A DNA stretch of 64,000 bases, taken from assembly GCF_009931435.1 (NCBI RefSeq), contig NZ_CP043414.1; one strand, 5' to 3'. Positions within the stretch are counted from its first letter, which is position 1; each line of letters starts with the position of its first letter. A model generated the notes under the pieces. The model did not search any database and was not told the origin of the DNA. It saw only the letters and a program-made list of their open reading frames with translations. This document shows, in pieces, positions 8,399-51,311 of this stretch. Both the position numbers and the translations under genes were made by a program. This DNA is from Escherichia coli (GTDB lineage Bacteria; Pseudomonadota; Gammaproteobacteria; Enterobacterales; Enterobacteriaceae).

Positions 8399-9056
8399 AC
8401 TTAACTCCACTGTCACACTTAACTCCCTTTCCCTTATTGGAATGCAGAGAAATAATCCTCGAGAATATGATTTATCATGCATATAAAATAAGAAAAAGGA
8501 AAATGAGAAAAATTAGGAAAACATAAAGATACGGGTTCTTATAAAAACAGAACCCATTGCCGAGTAAAGAGTCATTTACCGCAGCATAATAATCCATAAT
8601 GTTTTTGTTGCGAAAACAATCTAATCATAACTACCGCGAATACTCAATCATCCACAAAATGGATTAAATGTGCTTTTTTAATAATTAATTTATATGTTTA
8701 ATGCATTAATTCTTAACATTAATAGAACAATAATATTCACCAAATGAATATCAAAAAATTAGCAAAACATATAATTCAATACAAATCATCAAGATAGGTT
8801 TTGTAACGCGTGCATTTTATCCCCCTTTTCCTCGTTGATTAGATGCAAAAATTTATTCTGAAATATGTCAACCGATGAAAAGCGTCGGTGGTTAAGCAGA
8901 AATTAATATCGCTTGTTTTAACCACCGCAGCACAATTAGCTAATTTGACGAATGCAGAACTCACTCTGGCGGAACGTTTTTGTTGCGTCAGGGTTGACAT
9001 CCGTTTTTGTATCCAGTAACTCTAAAAGCATATCGTATTCATCTGGAGCTGATTTA

Positions 9057-9143
9057 ATGACTCACATCGTTCGCTTTATCGGTCTACTACTACTAAACGC
9101 ATCTTCTTTGCGCGGTAGACGAGTGAGCGGCATTCAGCATTAA
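9057..9143 (+). CDS. leuL: leu operon leader peptide (28 aa) with four consecutive Leu codons
   Basis: ATG at 9057; [31 protein letters not shown] x4 run; followed by attenuator hairpin. Confidence 0.9.
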
Positions 9144-9161
9144 GCCAGCACGCAGTCAAAC

Positions 9162-9193
9162 AAAAAACCCGCGCCATTGCGCGGGTTTTTTTA
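9162..9193 (+). terminator. leu operon attenuator (rho-independent terminator)
   Basis: AAAACCCGCGCCATTGCGCGGGTTTTTTT between leuL stop and leuA start. Confidence 0.85.
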
Positions 9194-13947: not shown

Positions 13948-14177
13948 AAAGAAAAAAGCCAGCAGATAATCACTGCTGGCGTGGCGATTAACACCAATAC
14001 TCAGTCACACATGATGTCCGCAAATCAGTAGTCAGAATGACTCCCCTCCCACTGCATCAGCTCTTCAAGCATGGTTAATCGTTGTGGGACGCTTAACCAA
14101 CGCAACCAGCACAACGTCGCTGTCGCGGTAAAATAGTGCTGATAAAACTGACGTATGGGGCACCTCCTTGCTTCATC
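13948..14177 (-). ncRNA. sgrS: SgrS small RNA (glucose-phosphate stress), divergent from sgrR
   Basis: Minus-strand RNA beginning GAUGAAGCAAGG, conserved GUGUGACUGAGUAUUGGUGU seed region, terminator hairpin GCCAGCAG/CUGCUGGC plus U-run; position between sgrR and leuD. Confidence 0.75.
14025..14156 (-). pseudogene. sgrT: sgrT-like 43-codon frame inside SgrS whose initiation codon reads ATA instead of ATG
   Basis: Frame encodes (I)RQFYQHYFTATATLCWLRWLSVPQRLTMLEELMQWEGSHSDY; codon at 14154-14156 is ATA on the minus strand; an AGGAGG lies 7 nt upstream. Confidence 0.4.
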
Positions 14178-15900: not shown

Positions 15901-15934
15901 TTGCTGGTTGATAACAAAATCACTACACTAACGC

Positions 15935-16020
15935 CGTTCTCAACGGGGTGCCACGCTGCCGCGTGCGCTGAGAAAATACCCGTCGAACCTGATCCGGATA
16001 ACGCCGGCGAAGGGATTTGA
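15935..16020 (+). promoter_or_regulatory. TPP riboswitch (THI-box) in the thiBPQ leader
   Basis: Conserved elements GGGGTGCC ... CTGAGA ... ACCTGATCCGGATAACGCCGGCGAAGGGA directly upstream of thiB. Confidence 0.8.
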
Positions 16021-16063
16021 GGCTCCTTCTCAAGTCCTTTGCCACTCTTCTTTGAGGTGCAAA

Positions 16064-21321: not shown

Positions 21322-23196
<1,875 letters not shown>

Positions 23197-23206
23197 GGAC
23201 ACGACA

Positions 23207-24709
23207 ATGACAATTTTTGATAATTATGAAGTGTGGTTTGTAATTGGCAGCCAGCATCTGTATGGTCCGGAAACCCTGCGTCAGGTCACCCAACATGCCG
23301 AGCACGTCGTTAATGCGCTGAATACGGAAGCGAAACTGCCCTGCAAACTGGTGCTGAAACCGCTGGGCACCACGCCGGATGAAATCACCGCTATTTGCCG
23401 TGACGCGAATTACGACGATCGTTGCGCTGGTCTGGTGGTGTGGCTGCACACCTTTTCCCCGGCCAAAATGTGGATCAACGGCCTGACCATGCTCAACAAA
23501 CCGTTGCTGCAATTCCACACCCAGTTCAACGCGGCGCTGCCGTGGGATAGCATCGATATGGACTTTATGAACCTGAACCAGACTGCACATGGCGGTCGCG
23601 AGTTCGGCTTCATTGGCGCGCGTATGCGTCAGCAACATGCTGTCGTTACCGGTCACTGGCAGGATAAACAAGCACATGAGCGTATCGGCTCCTGGATGCG
23701 TCAGGCGGTCTCTAAACAGGATACCCGTCATCTGAAAGTTTGCCGCTTTGGCGATAACATGCGTGAAGTGGCGGTCACCGATGGCGATAAAGTTGCCGCA
23801 CAAATCAAATTCGGTTTCTCCGTCAATACCTGGGCAGTTGGCGATCTGGTGCAGGTGGTGAACTCCATCAGCGATGGCGATGTTAACGCGCTGGTCGATG
23901 AGTACGAAAGCTGCTACACCATGACGCCTGCGACACAAATCCACGGCGAAAAACGGCAGAACGTGCTGGAAGCTGCGCGTATTGAGCTGGGGATGAAGCG
24001 TTTCCTGGAACAAGGTGGCTTCCATGCGTTCACCACCACCTTTGAAGATTTGCACGGTCTGAAGCAGCTTCCAGGCCTGGCCGTGCAGCGTCTGATGCAG
24101 CAGGGCTACGGCTTTGCGGGCGAAGGCGACTGGAAAACTGCCGCCCTGCTTCGCATCATGAAAGTGATGTCAACCGGTCTGCAGGGCGGCACCTCCTTTA
24201 TGGAGGACTACACTTACCACTTCGAAAAAGGTAATGACCTGGTGCTCGGCTCCCATATGCTGGAAGTCTGTCCGTCGATCGCCGTAGAAGAGAAACCGAT
24301 CCTCGACGTTCAACACCTCGGGATTGGCGGTAAAGACGATCCTGCCCGCCTGATCTTCAATACCCAAACTGGTCCGGCGATTGTCGCCAGCTTGATTGAT
24401 CTCGGCGATCGTTACCGTCTGCTGGTTAACTGCATCGACACGGTGAAAACGCCGCACACCCTGCCGAAACTGCCGGTGGCGAATGCGCTGTGGAAAGCGC
24501 AGCCGGATCTACCAACCGCTTCCGAAGCGTGGATCCTTGCTGGTGGCGCGCACCACACCGTCTTCAGCCATGCGTTGAACCTCAACGATATGCGCCAGTT
24601 TGCCGAGATGCACGACATTGAAATCACGGTGATTAATAACGACACCCGCCTGCCAGCGTTTAAAGACGCGCTGCGCTGGAACGAAGTGTATTACGGATTT
24701 CGTCGCTAA
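23207..24709 (+). CDS. araA: L-arabinose isomerase
   Basis: 500-aa ORF. Confidence 0.95.
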
Positions 24710-24731
24710 GTAGCCGCATCAGGTATGTAAC

Positions 24732-24810
24732 GCCTGATGCGACGCTGACGCGTCTTATCTGGCCTACACGTTCCGATTTTGTAGGCCGGATAAGCAAAGC
24801 GCATCCGGCA
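24732..24810. repeat. REP elements (inverted pair) between araA and araD
   Basis: GCCTGATGCGACGCTGACGCGTCTTATCTGGCCTAC and GTAGGCCGGATAAGCAAAGCGCATCCGGCA. Confidence 0.75.
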
Positions 24811-24877
24811 TTCTTTTCCCCCTCGCCCCTTTGGGGAGAGGGCCGGGGTGAGGGGAAACGACCTCTCAGGAGTCAAC

Positions 24878-25573
24878 ATGTTAGAAGATCTCAAACGTCA
24901 GGTTTTAGAAGCCAACCTGGCGCTGCCAAAACACAACCTGGTCACGCTGACCTGGGGCAACGTCAGCGCCGTTGATCGCGAGCGCGGCGTCTTTGTAATC
25001 AAACCTTCCGGCGTCGATTACAACGTCATGACCGCTGACGATATGGTCGTGGTCAGCATCGAAACCGGTGAAGTGGTTGAAGGTACGAAAAAGCCCTCCT
25101 CCGACACGCCAACTCACCGGCTGCTCTATCAGGCATTCCCGTCCATTGGCGGCATTGTGCATACGCACTCCCGCCACGCCACCATCTGGGCGCAGGCGGG
25201 CCAGTCAATTCCGGCAACCGGCACCACCCACGCCGACTATTTCTACGGCACCATTCCCTGCACTCGCAAAATGACCGACGCAGAAATCAACGGCGAATAT
25301 GAGTGGGAAACCGGTAACGTCATCGTTGAAACTTTCGAAAAACAGGGTATCGACGCAGCGCAAATGCCTGGCGTTCTGGTCCATTCTCACGGCCCGTTTG
25401 CATGGGGTAAAAACGCTGAAGACGCAGTGCATAACGCCATCGTGCTGGAAGAAGTCGCTTATATGGGGATTTTCTGCCGCCAGCTTGCTCCGCAGTTACC
25501 GGATATGCAGCAAACATTGCTGGATAAACACTATCTGCGTAAGCATGGTGCGAAGGCATATTACGGGCAGTGA
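24878..25573 (+). CDS. araD: L-ribulose-5-phosphate 4-epimerase
   Basis: Frame 24848..25573 trimmed to conserved [19 protein letters not shown] start (231 aa). Confidence 0.95.
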
Positions 25574-25580
25574 TTTAAGA

Positions 25581-25612
25581 GAAGCATCTGGGTAACAGGT
25601 GCTTCTTTTTTA
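25581..25612 (+). terminator. Rho-independent terminator after araD (may act bidirectionally)
   Basis: GAAGCATCTG-GGTAA-CAGGTGCTTC stem followed by TTTTTTATT; the minus-strand 147-aa ORF ends 7 nt beyond it. Confidence 0.8.
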
Positions 25613-25619
25613 TTATCAC

Positions 25620-26063
25620 TCAGGCAGCAAGAAAAATTTCTGCCCCTATTCCCTCAATTAACAGTGCTTCTAATGAAGGGGCAATATACACCGCATCATC
25701 AAGATCTAAATTACCAAAACCGACGAGATATAAACCAAACCCCTCTTTTCCTTCGGCATAAAAAATCACTTTTCCGCCTTCATCATCGCCAATCGCCAGA
25801 GCGTGTGGAATATAATCCTGAATATGGTATGCGGCATTCATCTCACTACAGCCTGCGGCTCCCCAAATTCTGATATAAGACGTTGAATCCATCACTTTTA
25901 ATTCAACGTCTGCCATCAGAGTAATAAAGGTTAAATACTCATCAGGAATTGCAATGTGAAAATAATTTTTTATAAGTTGACCGAGTCCACTATAATCTAA
26001 TACGGGTTCCCATGACGCCAGCGTGAATTTTTCATGCAATTTAACAATAGGAAACTTACTCAT
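25620..26063 (-). CDS. Hypothetical protein, SUKH/SMI1-KNR4-like (candidate immunity protein); third gene of the islet operon
   Basis: 147-aa ORF; ATG with AAGGA SD; start overlaps upstream ORF stop (ATGA); motifs IPDEYLTFI, AIGDDEGGKVIFY, DDAVYIAPSLEALL resemble SUKH-family immunity proteins; AT-rich. Confidence 0.6.
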   Translation of the reverse strand: MSKFPIVKLHEKFTLASWEPVLDYSGLGQLIKNYFHIAIPDEYLTFITLMADVELKVMDSTSYIRIWGAAGCSEMNAAYHIQDYIPHALAIGDDEGGKVIFYAEGKEGFGLYLVGFGNLDLDDAVYIAPSLEALLIEGIGAEIFLAA

Positions 26064-26407
26064 TTCATCATCCTTTTCTTATACTTCTGGGGTAAAATAT
26101 CCGTTATAACGCCTTCACCTATAAATCCGGCTTCCCACAGCAGAAACTCACTGCCACAGCTGATCCACGGCATTACAAGTTCAGGATTTAAAAACGCCAT
26201 CTCAAGATTGTGTACCATTTCGCCAGGGTGAATCGTTTTTCCATAGCCGTCGATGTAAATCCGGCAGCCATAACCATATGAAGATAACTCATTAATCCCT
26301 TTAAAAAAGACAGGACAGCCGTAAAAACGGTTAGATGATAACAAAGGGCCACGATGCGATTTTTGCGTTGAAGAGTATAGTGTAATGGTAATCCGAACCT
26401 TTCTCAT
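26060..26407 (-). CDS. Hypothetical 115-aa protein; second gene of the islet operon
   Basis: ATG preceded by GGAGG SD 5 nt upstream; 12-nt spacer from upstream ORF; overlaps downstream ORF start; no recognisable family. Confidence 0.55.
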   Translation of the reverse strand: MRKVRITITLYSSTQKSHRGPLLSSNRFYGCPVFFKGINELSSYGYGCRIYIDGYGKTIHPGEMVHNLEMAFLNPELVMPWISCGSEFLLWEAGFIGEGVITDILPQKYKKRMMK

Positions 26408-26419
26408 CTTCCCTCCGAA

Positions 26420-26752
26420 TTAATTACGCTCTTCAATCAAATATGTCGTTTTATTAGTCCAGGCGATTATTTTATAGGGTCTGTTAATAATACCTTTCTG
26501 CGTATAATCAGCCATAATTTCTGATGGATACCAACCATAACCAAAGCAAAATAAAGCACCTACATTAATAAGCTCACTAATTACACTTAGTTTCTCATTT
26601 TCATTACTGGTATTTTTGCTAAATCGATCATTGTCGGCAGAAAAACCCAACCGTTGCATTTTTTCAACGTTATCATATCCGGTCACTACCGTTTCAATGA
26701 AATTATCACTTATGCTAACCACTATAATACAATCGCTCGGCAGTGTGTTCAT
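26420..26752 (-). CDS. Hypothetical 110-aa protein; first gene of the islet operon
   Basis: ATG with AAGGA/AGGGG SD; AT-rich; no recognisable family. Confidence 0.55.
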   Translation of the reverse strand: MNTLPSDCIIVVSISDNFIETVVTGYDNVEKMQRLGFSADNDRFSKNTSNENEKLSVISELINVGALFCFGYGWYPSEIMADYTQKGIINRPYKIIAWTNKTTYLIEERN

Positions 26753-26975
26753 TTCCCCTTGATCCTTCTAAAGTCATTTTTTCACCACAACAATGAATTC
26801 AATAGATATAATGAATATATGCAGCCATTTATATATAATTAGCATTACACCCTAATGCCTTAATATAACCCAAACAGAAATCGTCCGATAATCAGAAAAT
26901 GTAATCATTGAATAAAGCAGGAACCTTTTTATCGCATGAGAAACCGAAGATGGTTGATGCCGTTTCGTCAAACAT

Positions 26976-27035
26976 TACTGTACAAAATATCAGTGTTCAG
27001 TAAAAAACCAGGCTATAATCAAGCCTGGTTTTTTG
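26976..27035 (+). promoter_or_regulatory. polB (dinA) SOS control region: LexA box plus promoter-proximal perfect hairpin
   Basis: TACTGTACAAAATATCAGTG (CTG-N10-CAG) at 26976-26995; AACCAGGCT-ATAATCA-AGCCTGGTT hairpin followed by TTTTT ending about 14 nt before the polB GTG. Confidence 0.6.
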
Positions 27036-27048
27036 ATGGATTTTCAGC

Positions 27049-29400
27049 GTGGCGCAGGCAGGTTTTATCTTAACCCGACACTGGCGGGACACCCCGCAAG
27101 GGACAGAGGTCTCCTTCTGGCTGGCGACGGACAACGGGCCGTTGCAGGTTACGCTTGCACCGCAAGAGTCCGTGGCGTTTATTCCCGCCGATCAGGTTCC
27201 CCGCGCCCAGCATATTTTGCAGGGTGAACAAGGCTTTCGCCTGACGCCGCTGGCGTTAAAGGATTTTCATCGCCAGCCGGTGTATGGCCTTTACTGTCGC
27301 GCCCATCGCCAGTTAATGAATTACGAAAAGCGCCTGCGTGAAGGTGGCGTTACCGTCTACGAGGCCGATGTGCGCCCGCCAGAACGCTATCTGATGGAGC
27401 GGTTTATCACCTCACCGGTGTGGGTCGAGGGTGATATGCGCAATGGCGCTATCGTTAATGCCCGTCTGAAACCGCATCCCGACTACCGCCCGCCGCTCAA
27501 GTGGGTTTCTATTGATATTGAAACCACCCGCCACGGTGAACTGTACTGCATCGGTCTGGAAGGCTGCGGGCAGCGCATCGTTTATATGCTGGGGCCGGAG
27601 AATGGCGATGCCTCCGCGCTTGATTTCGAACTGGAGTACGTCGCCAGTCGTCCGCATCTGCTGGAAAAACTCAACGCCTGGTTTGCTAACCACGATCCCG
27701 ATGTGATCATCGGCTGGAACGTGGTGCAATTCGATCTGCGAATGCTGCAAAAACATGCCGAGCGTTATCGTATTCCGCTGCGGCTGGGGCGCGATAACAG
27801 TGAGCTGGAGTGGCGCGAGCACGGCTTTAAAAACGGTGTCTTTTTTGCCCAGGCCAAAGGGCGGCTAATTATCGACGGTATCGAGGCACTGAAATCCGCG
27901 TTCTGGAATTTCTCTTCATTCTCGCTGGAAACCGTCGCTCAGGAGTTATTAGGCGAAGGAAAATCTATCGATAACCCGTGGGATCGGATGGACGAAATTG
28001 ACCGCCGTTTCGCCGAAGATAAACCTGCGCTAGCAACTTATAACCTGAAAGATTGCGAACTGGTGACGCAGATCTTCCACAAAACTGAAATCATGCCGTT
28101 TTTACTCGAACGAGCGACGGTTAACGGCCTGCCGGTAGATCGGCACGGGGGATCGGTGGCGGCGTTTGGTCATCTCTATTTTCCGCGAATGCATCGCGCT
28201 GGTTATGTCGCGCCTAATCTCGGCGAAGTGCCGCCGCACGCCAGCCCTGGCGGCTATGTGATGGATTCGCGGCCTGGGCTTTATGATTCGGTACTGGTGC
28301 TGGACTATAAAAGCCTGTACCCGTCGATCATCCGCACCTTTCTGATTGATCCCGTCGGACTGGTAGAAGGTATGGCGCAGCCTGATCCAGAGCACAGTAC
28401 CGAAGGCTTTCTCGATGCCTGGTTCTCGCGGGAGAAACATTGCCTGCCGGAGATTGTGACTAACATCTGGCACGGGCGCGATGAAGCCAAACGCCAGGGC
28501 AATAAACCGCTGTCGCAGGCGCTGAAGATCATTATGAATGCCTTTTACGGCGTGCTCGGTACTACCGCCTGTCGCTTCTTCGATCCGCGCCTGGCATCGT
28601 CGATCACCATGCGTGGTCATCAGATCATGCGGCAAACCAAAGCGTTGATTGAAGCGCAGGGCTACGACGTGATCTACGGCGATACCGACTCAACGTTTGT
28701 CTGGCTGAAAGGCGCACATTCGGAAGAAGAAGCGGCGAAAATCGGTCGTGCACTGGTGCAGCACGTTAACGCCTGGTGGGCAGAAACGTTGCAACAGCAA
28801 CGGCTGACTAGCGCACTGGAATTGGAGTATGAAACCCATTTCTGCCGTTTTCTGATGCCAACCATTCGCGGAGCCGATACCGGCAGTAAAAAACGTTATG
28901 CCGGGCTGATTCAGGAGGGCGATAAGCAGCGGATGGTGTTTAAAGGGCTGGAAACCGTGCGCACCGACTGGACACCGCTGGCCCAGCAGTTTCAGCAGGA
29001 GCTATATCTACGTATCTTCCGCAACGAGCCATATCAGGAGTACGTCCGCGAAACCATCGACAAACTGATGGCTGGCGAACTGGATGCACGGCTGGTTTAC
29101 CGTAAACGCCTTCGCCGTCCACTGAGCGAATACCAGCGTAATGTGCCGCCTCATGTACGCGCCGCACGCCTTGCGGATGAAGAAAACCAAAAGCGCGGTC
29201 GCCCCTTGCAATATCAGAACCGCGGCACCATTAAGTACGTATGGACCACCAACGGCCCGGAGCCGCTGGACTACCAACGTTCACCGCTGGATTACGAACA
29301 CTATCTGACCCGCCAGCTACAACCCGTGGCGGAGGGAATACTCCCTTTTATTGAGGATAATTTTGCTACACTTATGACCGGGCAACTTGGGCTATTTTGA
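27049..29400 (+). CDS. polB: DNA polymerase II (B-family)
   Basis: 783-aa ORF, GTG start; exonuclease and polymerase motifs (YGDTDS). Confidence 0.95.
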
Positions 29401-50950: not shown

Positions 50951-51311
50951 AACACCCTCCAGAGAATATTCACTCACTTTATTTGCATATTAATTCACAA
51001 TGATGACGTAAATCAATGCAAATCTGCTTACCGACGAATTTCTGGCAAACGGCGGCATTCTGGAGAGATGAGAGCTAAAAGTCAACTTAATGGTGGTATT
51101 TTTTATATTATTTTGTGGCTCATGCATGTTTTGCAGTCATTAAGCGACAAAAAGATCATATAACCCGTTCTGGAAAACGCTTGCGCAGCAAGAAGATTGT
51201 ATAAAATCAAAACGCGTAGAAAAAAGTGGACCAAATGGTCAAAATTTACATTAAAACAACAAAAACAGAAGAGAAAACATGTTATTTTTAGCACACTATA
51301 CGATTTTATAA

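Follow-up and report, generated by a model that had tools for sequence, protein, structure and literature searches.

What is the short G-rich palindrome that stands between a pair of REP sequences and araD in this strain of Escherichia coli, and does it belong to those REPs, to another repeat family or to none? The window analysed here is the whole stretch of 64,000 nucleotides, one strand of contig NZ_CP043414.1 (RefSeq assembly GCF_009931435.1), and positions refer to it unless another genome is named. Four Rfam matches at the gathering score, to the Leu leader (9043–9192, plus strand), SgrS (13951–14177, minus strand), a TPP riboswitch (15934–16033, plus strand) and the ES003 sRNA (50998–51050, minus strand), identify it as the leu–sgrS–thi–ara–polB region. 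Its closest match among 5426 complete E. coli genomes, compared over window positions 23000–31000, reaches only 97.3% identity over araA–araD and 98.2% over polB–rapA, which points to a source probably outside the E. coli diversity sampled, for instance Shigella or a cryptic Escherichia clade. A sequence-only reading of the locus had described a G-rich element next to the araA–araD REP pair, upstream of araD, as an imperfect palindrome distinct from the REPs and resembling a dispersed intergenic repeat, to which it could give no family name. These observations stand, and the family can be named. With a probability of roughly 0.88, the element at 24820–24855, together with arms spanning about 24811–24867, is one copy of the repeat known as BoxC, PIT or TMECO, of subtype B mm, and at ara it is a derived and polymorphic passenger.

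Position, block architecture and fold

The element is a 36-mer on the plus strand, CCCTCGCCCCTTTGGGGAGAGGGCCGGGGTGAGGGG, located between the REP pair and the araD ribosome-binding site (Table 1); the start previously given for it, 24818, adds two C's to the core. It lies between the stop codon of araA, at 24709, and the ATG of araD, and is therefore intergenic, as expected of a BoxC copy. Its end is separated by 12 nt from the Shine-Dalgarno sequence AGGAG and by 22 nt from the ATG. An inverted-repeat scan recovers the imperfect palindrome, with arms of 14 nt each at 24816–24829 and 24845–24858 that are 86% complementary. Rather than a simple palindrome, the element is a C-G-G three-block potential intrastrand-triplex motif. 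Its blocks are arranged in the order C-block (CCCTCGCCCC), TTT, G-block 1 (GGGGAGAGGG), CC and G-block 2 (GGGGTGAGGGG), the C-block being able to pair with either G-block, and the two G-blocks being mirror images of each other. Watson-Crick pairing between the C-block and G-block 1 holds at nine of ten positions, and it is the single mismatch that defines the 'mm' subtype. Laid in reverse against G-block 1, G-block 2 gives only G.G:C, A.A:T and T.A:T triads, all ten of which are permitted.

Table 1. Features of the araA–araD spacer around the BoxC copy, in window positions
Feature	Position	Strand	Basis or remark
REP pair (one BIME unit), two REPs inverted	24729–24812		arms 24754–24768/24780–24794 and 24729–24741/24800–24812
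Whole segment of 'filled' alleles, 57 nt; CGA in 'empty' alleles	24811–24867	+	junction comparison
5′ arm TTCTTTTCC, part of the repeat unit, not REP	24811–24819	+	CTTTTCC/TTTTTCT flank of K-12 type B copies
BoxC / PIT / TMECO core, subtype B (CCG second loop), one mismatched triplet ('B mm')	24820–24855	+	pattern, identity, profile
C-block CCCTCGCCCC, pyrimidine arm	24820–24829	+	reverse complement fits G-block 1 at 9/10; with 24819, G-block 2 at 10/11
G-block 1 GGGGAGAGGG, Watson-Crick partner of the C-block, central strand of the proposed triplex	24833–24842	+	architecture per PMC4666352
G-block 2 GGGGTGAGGGG, mirror repeat of G-block 1, potential third strand	24845–24855	+	triads 10/10
3′ flank AAACGACCTCTC, within the segment absent from empty alleles	24856–24867	+	junction comparison; AAA is the usual family 3′ flank
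araD Shine-Dalgarno AGGAG (24868–24872) and start ATG (24878–24880)	24868–24880	+	same in filled and empty alleles

The CCTCTC of the 3′ flank can also pair with the G-blocks, and in the fold of minimum free energy (MFE) UGAGGGG pairs with CCUCUCA. The predicted RNA hairpin has an energy of −26.8 to −29.6 kcal/mol. When both strands were folded and compared with dinucleotide- and composition-matched shuffles, no excess stability was seen (z = −0.9 for RNA and −0.5 to −1.4 for DNA). The argument from an exceptional palindrome was dropped, as the fold energy lies within the range of shuffled sequence, and the case for more than chance accordingly rests on sequence identity with the family and not on folding. 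The structural argument, likewise, is that of the published biophysics of the family and not of the folding done here. The G-rich half of the element (GGGGAGAGGGCCGGGGTGAGGGG) contains a quadruplex motif (four times G3+N1-7); with the C-block attached, the quadruplex-aware MFE structure is the hairpin, and published NMR ruled out a quadruplex for the DNA oligonucleotide (PMC4666352).

That published work was carried out on a type B mm oligonucleotide identical to the present 36-mer; according to CD and NMR, its single strand folds into a stable intrastrand triplex of the purine motif, with a Tm of 70 ± 1 °C (Holder et al. 2015, PMC4666352). The C-block and the first G-block form a hairpin, onto which the second G-block folds back (PMC4666352). 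Together with its complementary strand the element is a duplex, in vivo DMS footprinting likewise found a duplex and no stable triplex, and in primer extension the element stalls the polymerase (PMC4666352). The motif resembles H-DNA in being a purine mirror repeat able to form G.G:C, A.A:T and T.A:T triads. H-DNA requires a long homopurine-homopyrimidine mirror repeat in supercoiled duplex, whereas BoxC supplies the three triplex strands from a single DNA strand, and so folds only when single-stranded.

Family identity and distribution of the repeat

In E. coli the repeat was first named BoxC (Bergler et al. 1992), later the potential intrastrand triplex (PIT) element (Hoyne et al. 2000; Hoyne and Maher 2002), and was then renamed TMECO (Holder et al. 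2015, PMC4666352). The TMECO consensus is 5′-CCCTCNCCC-N3-6-GGGNGAGGG-N3-GGGNGAGGG-[G/T/C/-], also written CCCTCNCCCN3-6GGGNGAGGGN3GGGNGAGGG (PMC4666352). The window contains one match to this pattern, at 24820–24854 and followed by G, while 100 shuffles yielded no match either to the pattern or to the 36-mer. Among the 23 copies of K-12 MG1655 listed in Table 1 of the same work, no. 3 (282101–282136) is of type B with one mismatch, and is the copy that was footprinted in vivo (PMC4666352). The ara 36-mer is identical to this copy at 36 of 36 positions, and a longer segment, 24812–24855 (44 nt), is 100% identical to 282096–282139 of a K-12 MG1655 assembly, the copy between yagA and yagE. A profile built from 19 BoxC copies at 15 K-12 loci, the ara locus not being among them, matched window 24809–24863 in an nhmmer search (E=8e-15, 50.2 bits), and gave no further significant match across the 64 kb.

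The flanks of the core also follow the family when the 19 K-12 copies and the window are aligned. In type B copies, which have CCG as the second loop, the core is preceded by CTTTTCC or TTTTTCT and is usually followed by AAA; the K-12 type B copies (L009, L029+, L030+ and L004+) share this 5′ flank, which type A copies lack. The latter, with the loop TTA, have ..GCAC-N4-ACGGTC on the 5′ side and GAAMAG..GCAC on the 3′ side. The flanks of the ara copy are those of type B, by a subtype-flank criterion that was derived in this analysis and not taken from the literature. Conserved, subtype-specific flanks indicate that the repeat unit is longer than the 36-nt core. In addition, the inner arms co-vary by subfamily, left ..ACAGTC occurring with right GAACAG.., and left ..ACGGTC with GAAAA or GAACG, which implies a repeat unit of about 60–70 nt.

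Rfam has no family for the element, either at a permissive E-value over 23000–27500 or at the gathering threshold over the whole window, and RefSeq annotation shows no feature under the BoxC repeat in any genome examined. The repeat is reportedly covered also in the 1999 survey of Bachellier et al. A literature search found no work on the BoxC family later than Holder 2015. The repeat is an already known one, and no feature of the ara element departs from it; the present result names a repeat that annotation pipelines leave unlabelled, which in itself matters little.

A 63-nt query around the element found a match in 5421 of 5426 complete E. coli genomes. At E<=10 the number of places per genome has a median of 19 and reaches 36 at most, and at E<=1e-3 the median falls to 12. 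The element is thus multi-copy and dispersed, the opposite of a single-copy sequence present in K-12 without relatives, which the sequence-only reading had considered as the contrary outcome of a genome-wide search. Only 48 of the 94,440 places were on plasmids. Published copy numbers per strain range from 1 to 30, with 1–2 in B2, 10–11 in O157:H7, 21–24 in K-12 derivatives and 28–29 in O104:H4, O26 and O111 (PMC4666352 supplement). Outside E. coli, Enterobacter asburiae has 143 copies and Salmonella none. No. 714 in Suppl. Table S8 of Holder et al. is this exact 36-mer, at 4420083–4420118 of NC_018661 (PMC4666352). In that genome araA ends at 4419972 and araD starts at 4420141, so that the entry falls between them and the ara copy itself is already in the literature.

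The motif has been reported as unassociated with transposons, phages and plasmids (PMC4666352). In contrast to the statement on phages, K-12 TMECO no. 3, in the yagA–yagE spacer (L009, K-12 281800–282400), lies inside the annotated cryptic prophage CP4-6 (262898–297205), and copy no. 4 (289246), by its Table 1 coordinates, is within CP4-6 as well. In the zntA–tusA spacer, sampled in ten assemblies (L033–L042), the BoxC copy is kept in all ten, several of the copies being decayed: five alleles have their C-block interrupted by a C-to-T change, and L040 and L042 have lost 8 nt and with them most of G-block 2. REP elements are inserted beside the BoxC copy in L038, L040 and L042.

BoxC and REP/BIME sequences have much in common, since both are short, GC-rich, hairpin-forming, intergenic, dispersed and often inside operons, and they adjoin each other at ara, at pstB–pstA and in some zntA–tusA alleles. 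They nevertheless differ in that REP is a different sequence family, with a single palindrome and hundreds of copies, whereas BoxC has three blocks and about 20 copies. REP sequences have a known association with RAYT transposases and known protein partners; we know of no enzyme or binding protein for BoxC. The distinctness of the element from the adjacent REPs, as claimed from the sequence, is supported by its absence from every internal BIME unit of K-12, CFT073 and PT62, and it has no similarity to the REP consensus (neighbour units ...GCCTGATGCGACGCT...GCGTCTTATCAGGCCTAC). The only Rfam matches next to the element are weak, sub-threshold ones to naRNA4, which is REP-derived; one on the minus strand, 24784–24843, reaches its 5′ half at 20.3 bits against a cutoff of 59.5.

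Filled and empty alleles of the araA–araD junction

Comparison with K-12 at this junction, which the sequence-only reading had proposed as a check, shows that the element is absent there, the 23 catalogued K-12 copies, including the one with 36/36 identity, being elsewhere. The K-12 spacer consists of three BIME units and ends ...GCATCCGGCA-CGA-AGGAGTCAACATG, and where K-12 has CGA the window has 57 nt made up of TTCTTTTCC, the core and AAACGACCTCTC. The same empty junction, CCGGCA-CGA-AGGAG, is found identically in K-12, CFT073, O157:H7, SMS-3-5, E. albertii, Escherichia sp. MOD1-EC7003 and SCPM-O-B-8794. When one genome per species was searched for the string that runs from the araD Shine-Dalgarno sequence to the ATG, three records came up, those of E. 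albertii, Escherichia sp. MOD1-EC7003 and a divergent 'E. coli' representative, and each of them has the empty state with this CGA junction. Since the junction is empty in outgroup Escherichia and in K-12, the filled state is derived, having been gained within the E. coli lineage.

With a 121-nt junction-spanning query, the filled junction was found in 1564 of 5426 complete E. coli genomes (29%), the rest matching on the araD side only. Both junctions are the same in the window, PT62, O145:H28 RM13516 and 1504D004, apart from a few point differences elsewhere, and O104:H4 2009EL-2071 is also filled, with all 63 nt of the junction-spanning query matched at 98.4%. The filled allele probably had a single origin, with which the common junctions are consistent. 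The empty site reads GGCAC|GA, and the junction is imprecise: CGA recurs inside the segment at 24859–24861 and is followed by an extra CCTCTC. The comparison of filled and empty junctions revealed no target-site duplication at ara, and no flanking direct repeat. A donor locus for the right flank of the window was also sought, and the next-best matches were other type B copies, covering positions 2–53 of the 63-nt query. What is added here beyond Holder et al. is that the ara copy is polarised as derived, occurs at a frequency of 1564/5426 and has an imprecise junction.

The Shine-Dalgarno sequence and the ATG of araD are the same in filled and empty alleles. The only open reading frame that crosses the element begins within BoxC (24848–25573, GTG start, 241 aa) and was rejected as a gene of its own; it is araD with a spurious upstream extension of ten codons, which empty alleles do not have. 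The true start of araD is the ATG at 24878, giving 231 aa as in K-12, and automatic gene callers could mis-start araD in filled alleles.

The number of BIME units in the araA–araD spacer differs among strains: one in the window, O145:H28, 1504D004, O104:H4 and E. albertii; two in SMS-3-5 and O157:H7; three in K-12, CFT073 and MOD1-EC7003; four in SCPM-O-B-8794; and about five in PT62. In the E. coli alleles that were measured, the spacer is between 167 and 423 nt long. REP-pair number varies independently of the BoxC copy, and differences between strains in this spacer are explained by two independent variables, the number of BIME units and whether the 57-nt BoxC segment is present. As a natural filled/empty pair in an inducible and well-understood operon, with a clear ancestral state, the ara junction is usable as a test locus for the spread and function of BoxC.

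Role at ara, mobility and instability

Since the sense strand at ara is the G-rich one, the element becomes part of the araBAD mRNA. RNA cannot adopt purine-motif triplexes (PMC4666352 introduction), so that only the hairpin is expected in this message. A scan for promoter-like and terminator-like sites found none overlapping 24811–24867 on either strand, and the hairpin is followed by GAAACGACC instead of the T/U run of an intrinsic terminator. Earlier reporter work found neither promoter nor terminator activity, and the motif showed no link to gene function or position (PMC4666352). On this basis the ara copy would be a passenger repeat that leaves the Shine-Dalgarno sequence and start of araD intact, and its main consequences would be, possibly, local structural instability of the DNA, and added length polymorphism beside an already variable BIME. 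We infer that it has no dedicated function at ara, relying on the published negative reporter assays at other copies. Given that the Shine-Dalgarno sequence is only 12 nt away, and that a weak hairpin can include part of it, a modest effect of the element on araD translation or mRNA processing may nonetheless be envisaged.

One locus that bears on the question of mobility is pstB–pstA, where a type A BoxC copy lies within a clean presence/absence difference of 92 nt bounded by an 8-bp direct repeat, AACCGTGT (K-12, L015 170–460, against strain QA-1986 630, L031 151–349). The long allele occurs in 2099 of 5426 genomes. A third AACCGTGT lies directly after the core, and the copy adjoins a REP pair. 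A target-site duplication and a slippage deletion would both account for this single case. Among the loci tried only pstB–pstA gave a clean indel, the alleles at adk–hemH and yihR–yihS being too diverged to be read for target-site duplications. In most K-12 copies (L010–L016, L025–L030) GCAC, or GTAC, occurs in direct orientation about 10–14 nt outside the core on both sides, and may reflect either a target duplication or shared ancestry. The derived ara copy, the pst indel and the flanking GCAC hint at mobility or template switching, and are too few to decide the matter.

Bacterial MITEs such as ERIC/IRU offer a comparison, as they too are small, non-coding, dispersed and structured intergenic sequences with presence/absence polymorphism. 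MITEs have terminal inverted repeats matching an IS element, together with target-site duplications, and the ara BoxC copy shows neither. It is against this background that we consider a non-autonomous mobile element, MITE-like or moved by some nuclease or transposase, that entered the ara spacer by transposition. The derived presence at ara, the subtype-specific arms conserved beyond the 36-nt core, the pstB–pstA difference with its direct repeat, the GCAC flanking most K-12 copies and the strong variation in copy number between lineages, from 1–2 in B2 to 28–29 in O104, O26 and O111, all agree with such an element, but there is neither a target-site duplication nor a clean boundary at ara, the family lacks terminal inverted repeats beyond the internal C- and G-blocks, and no candidate enzyme is known to us. 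The repeat is, moreover, almost never on plasmids and is described as unassociated with mobile elements of other kinds (transposons and phages; PMC4666352), and the pst case is a single example that a slippage deletion between direct repeats fits equally well. We therefore regard transposition into the spacer as doubtful, though worth keeping in mind. A stronger version, in which BoxC moves, or recently moved, as a unit of about 55–90 nt, and the ara copy is a datable insertion that arose via short homology at a GCAC-like target and might shift araD expression, seems to us somewhat less probable still. The related proposal that the element is kept because it promotes local recombination or mutation, an 'instability generator' in the ara–polB region, derives from an adaptive idea raised as speculation by Holder et al. 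(PMC4666352), who found that variable regions are larger, and small intergenic indels more numerous, at TMECO loci than at control loci. The neighbouring BIME varies from one to five copies, a rare 1.45-kb islet between araD and polB is 0.7 kb away, and copies at zntA–tusA are decayed or partly deleted, as such a generator might lead one to expect. BIME number varies, however, among empty alleles also (two or three pairs in K-12, CFT073, O157 and SMS-3-5), which means that the BoxC copy is not needed for this variation, and PT62 has the element but not the islet. The relationship is correlative, and repeats may merely insert or survive in permissive, variable spacers; retention for the sake of instability is unlikely.

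A cis-acting structure in the araBAD mRNA, either a hairpin or an RNA G-quadruplex that tunes araD translation or protects the araBA message as REP hairpins do, would draw on the sense transcription of the element within the operon, on the energy of the RNA hairpin (−26.8 to −29.6 kcal/mol), on the fit to the quadruplex motif, and on the ability of CCUCUC to pair with G-block 2 or to form a weak hairpin with the Shine-Dalgarno sequence. Yet the element is missing from about 71% of E. coli genomes and from every outgroup examined, where the Shine-Dalgarno sequence and ATG are the same, and the same sequence occurs in either orientation at about 20 unrelated intergenic sites. The hairpin persists as the MFE structure when quadruplexes are allowed, its energy is not above that of shuffles, and the published absence of promoter and terminator activity, and of any link to function or position (PMC4666352), argues in the same direction. 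We consider a regulatory structure of this kind very improbable. The simplest alternative, a chance G/C-rich palindrome or a mere part of the REP/BIME array, could appeal to the same unexceptional hairpin energy and to the sub-threshold naRNA4 match that runs into the 5′ half, but it is refuted by the multi-copy search, the TMECO pattern, the 36/36 identity to a catalogued repeat and the family profile (E=8e-15), and the internal BIME units contain neither the element nor, in their REP consensus, anything similar to it; we attach practically no weight to it. The reading as a BoxC passenger, derived within E. coli and polymorphic at ara, is the one retained.

Downstream of araD, the window carries an islet of about 1.45 kb (25580–27045) between the araD stop at 25573 and the polB start at 27049, with a GC content of 34–42% against about 55% in the flanks. 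K-12 and PT62 have a 74-bp araD–polB gap in its place. The islet region is covered by only two of the 5426 complete E. coli genomes, 2014C-3075 and SCU-301 (94.8% identity over the whole 25500–31000 query), in which three 'hypothetical' genes are annotated. On the minus strand, the islet contains an open reading frame at 25620–26063 (147 aa) with a weak SMI1_KNR4/SUKH-1 match (E=5e-4, below the Pfam cutoff), and two more, at 26060–26407 and 26420–26752, with no Pfam match. From these sequence features, the islet looks like an orphan immunity-type gene cassette.
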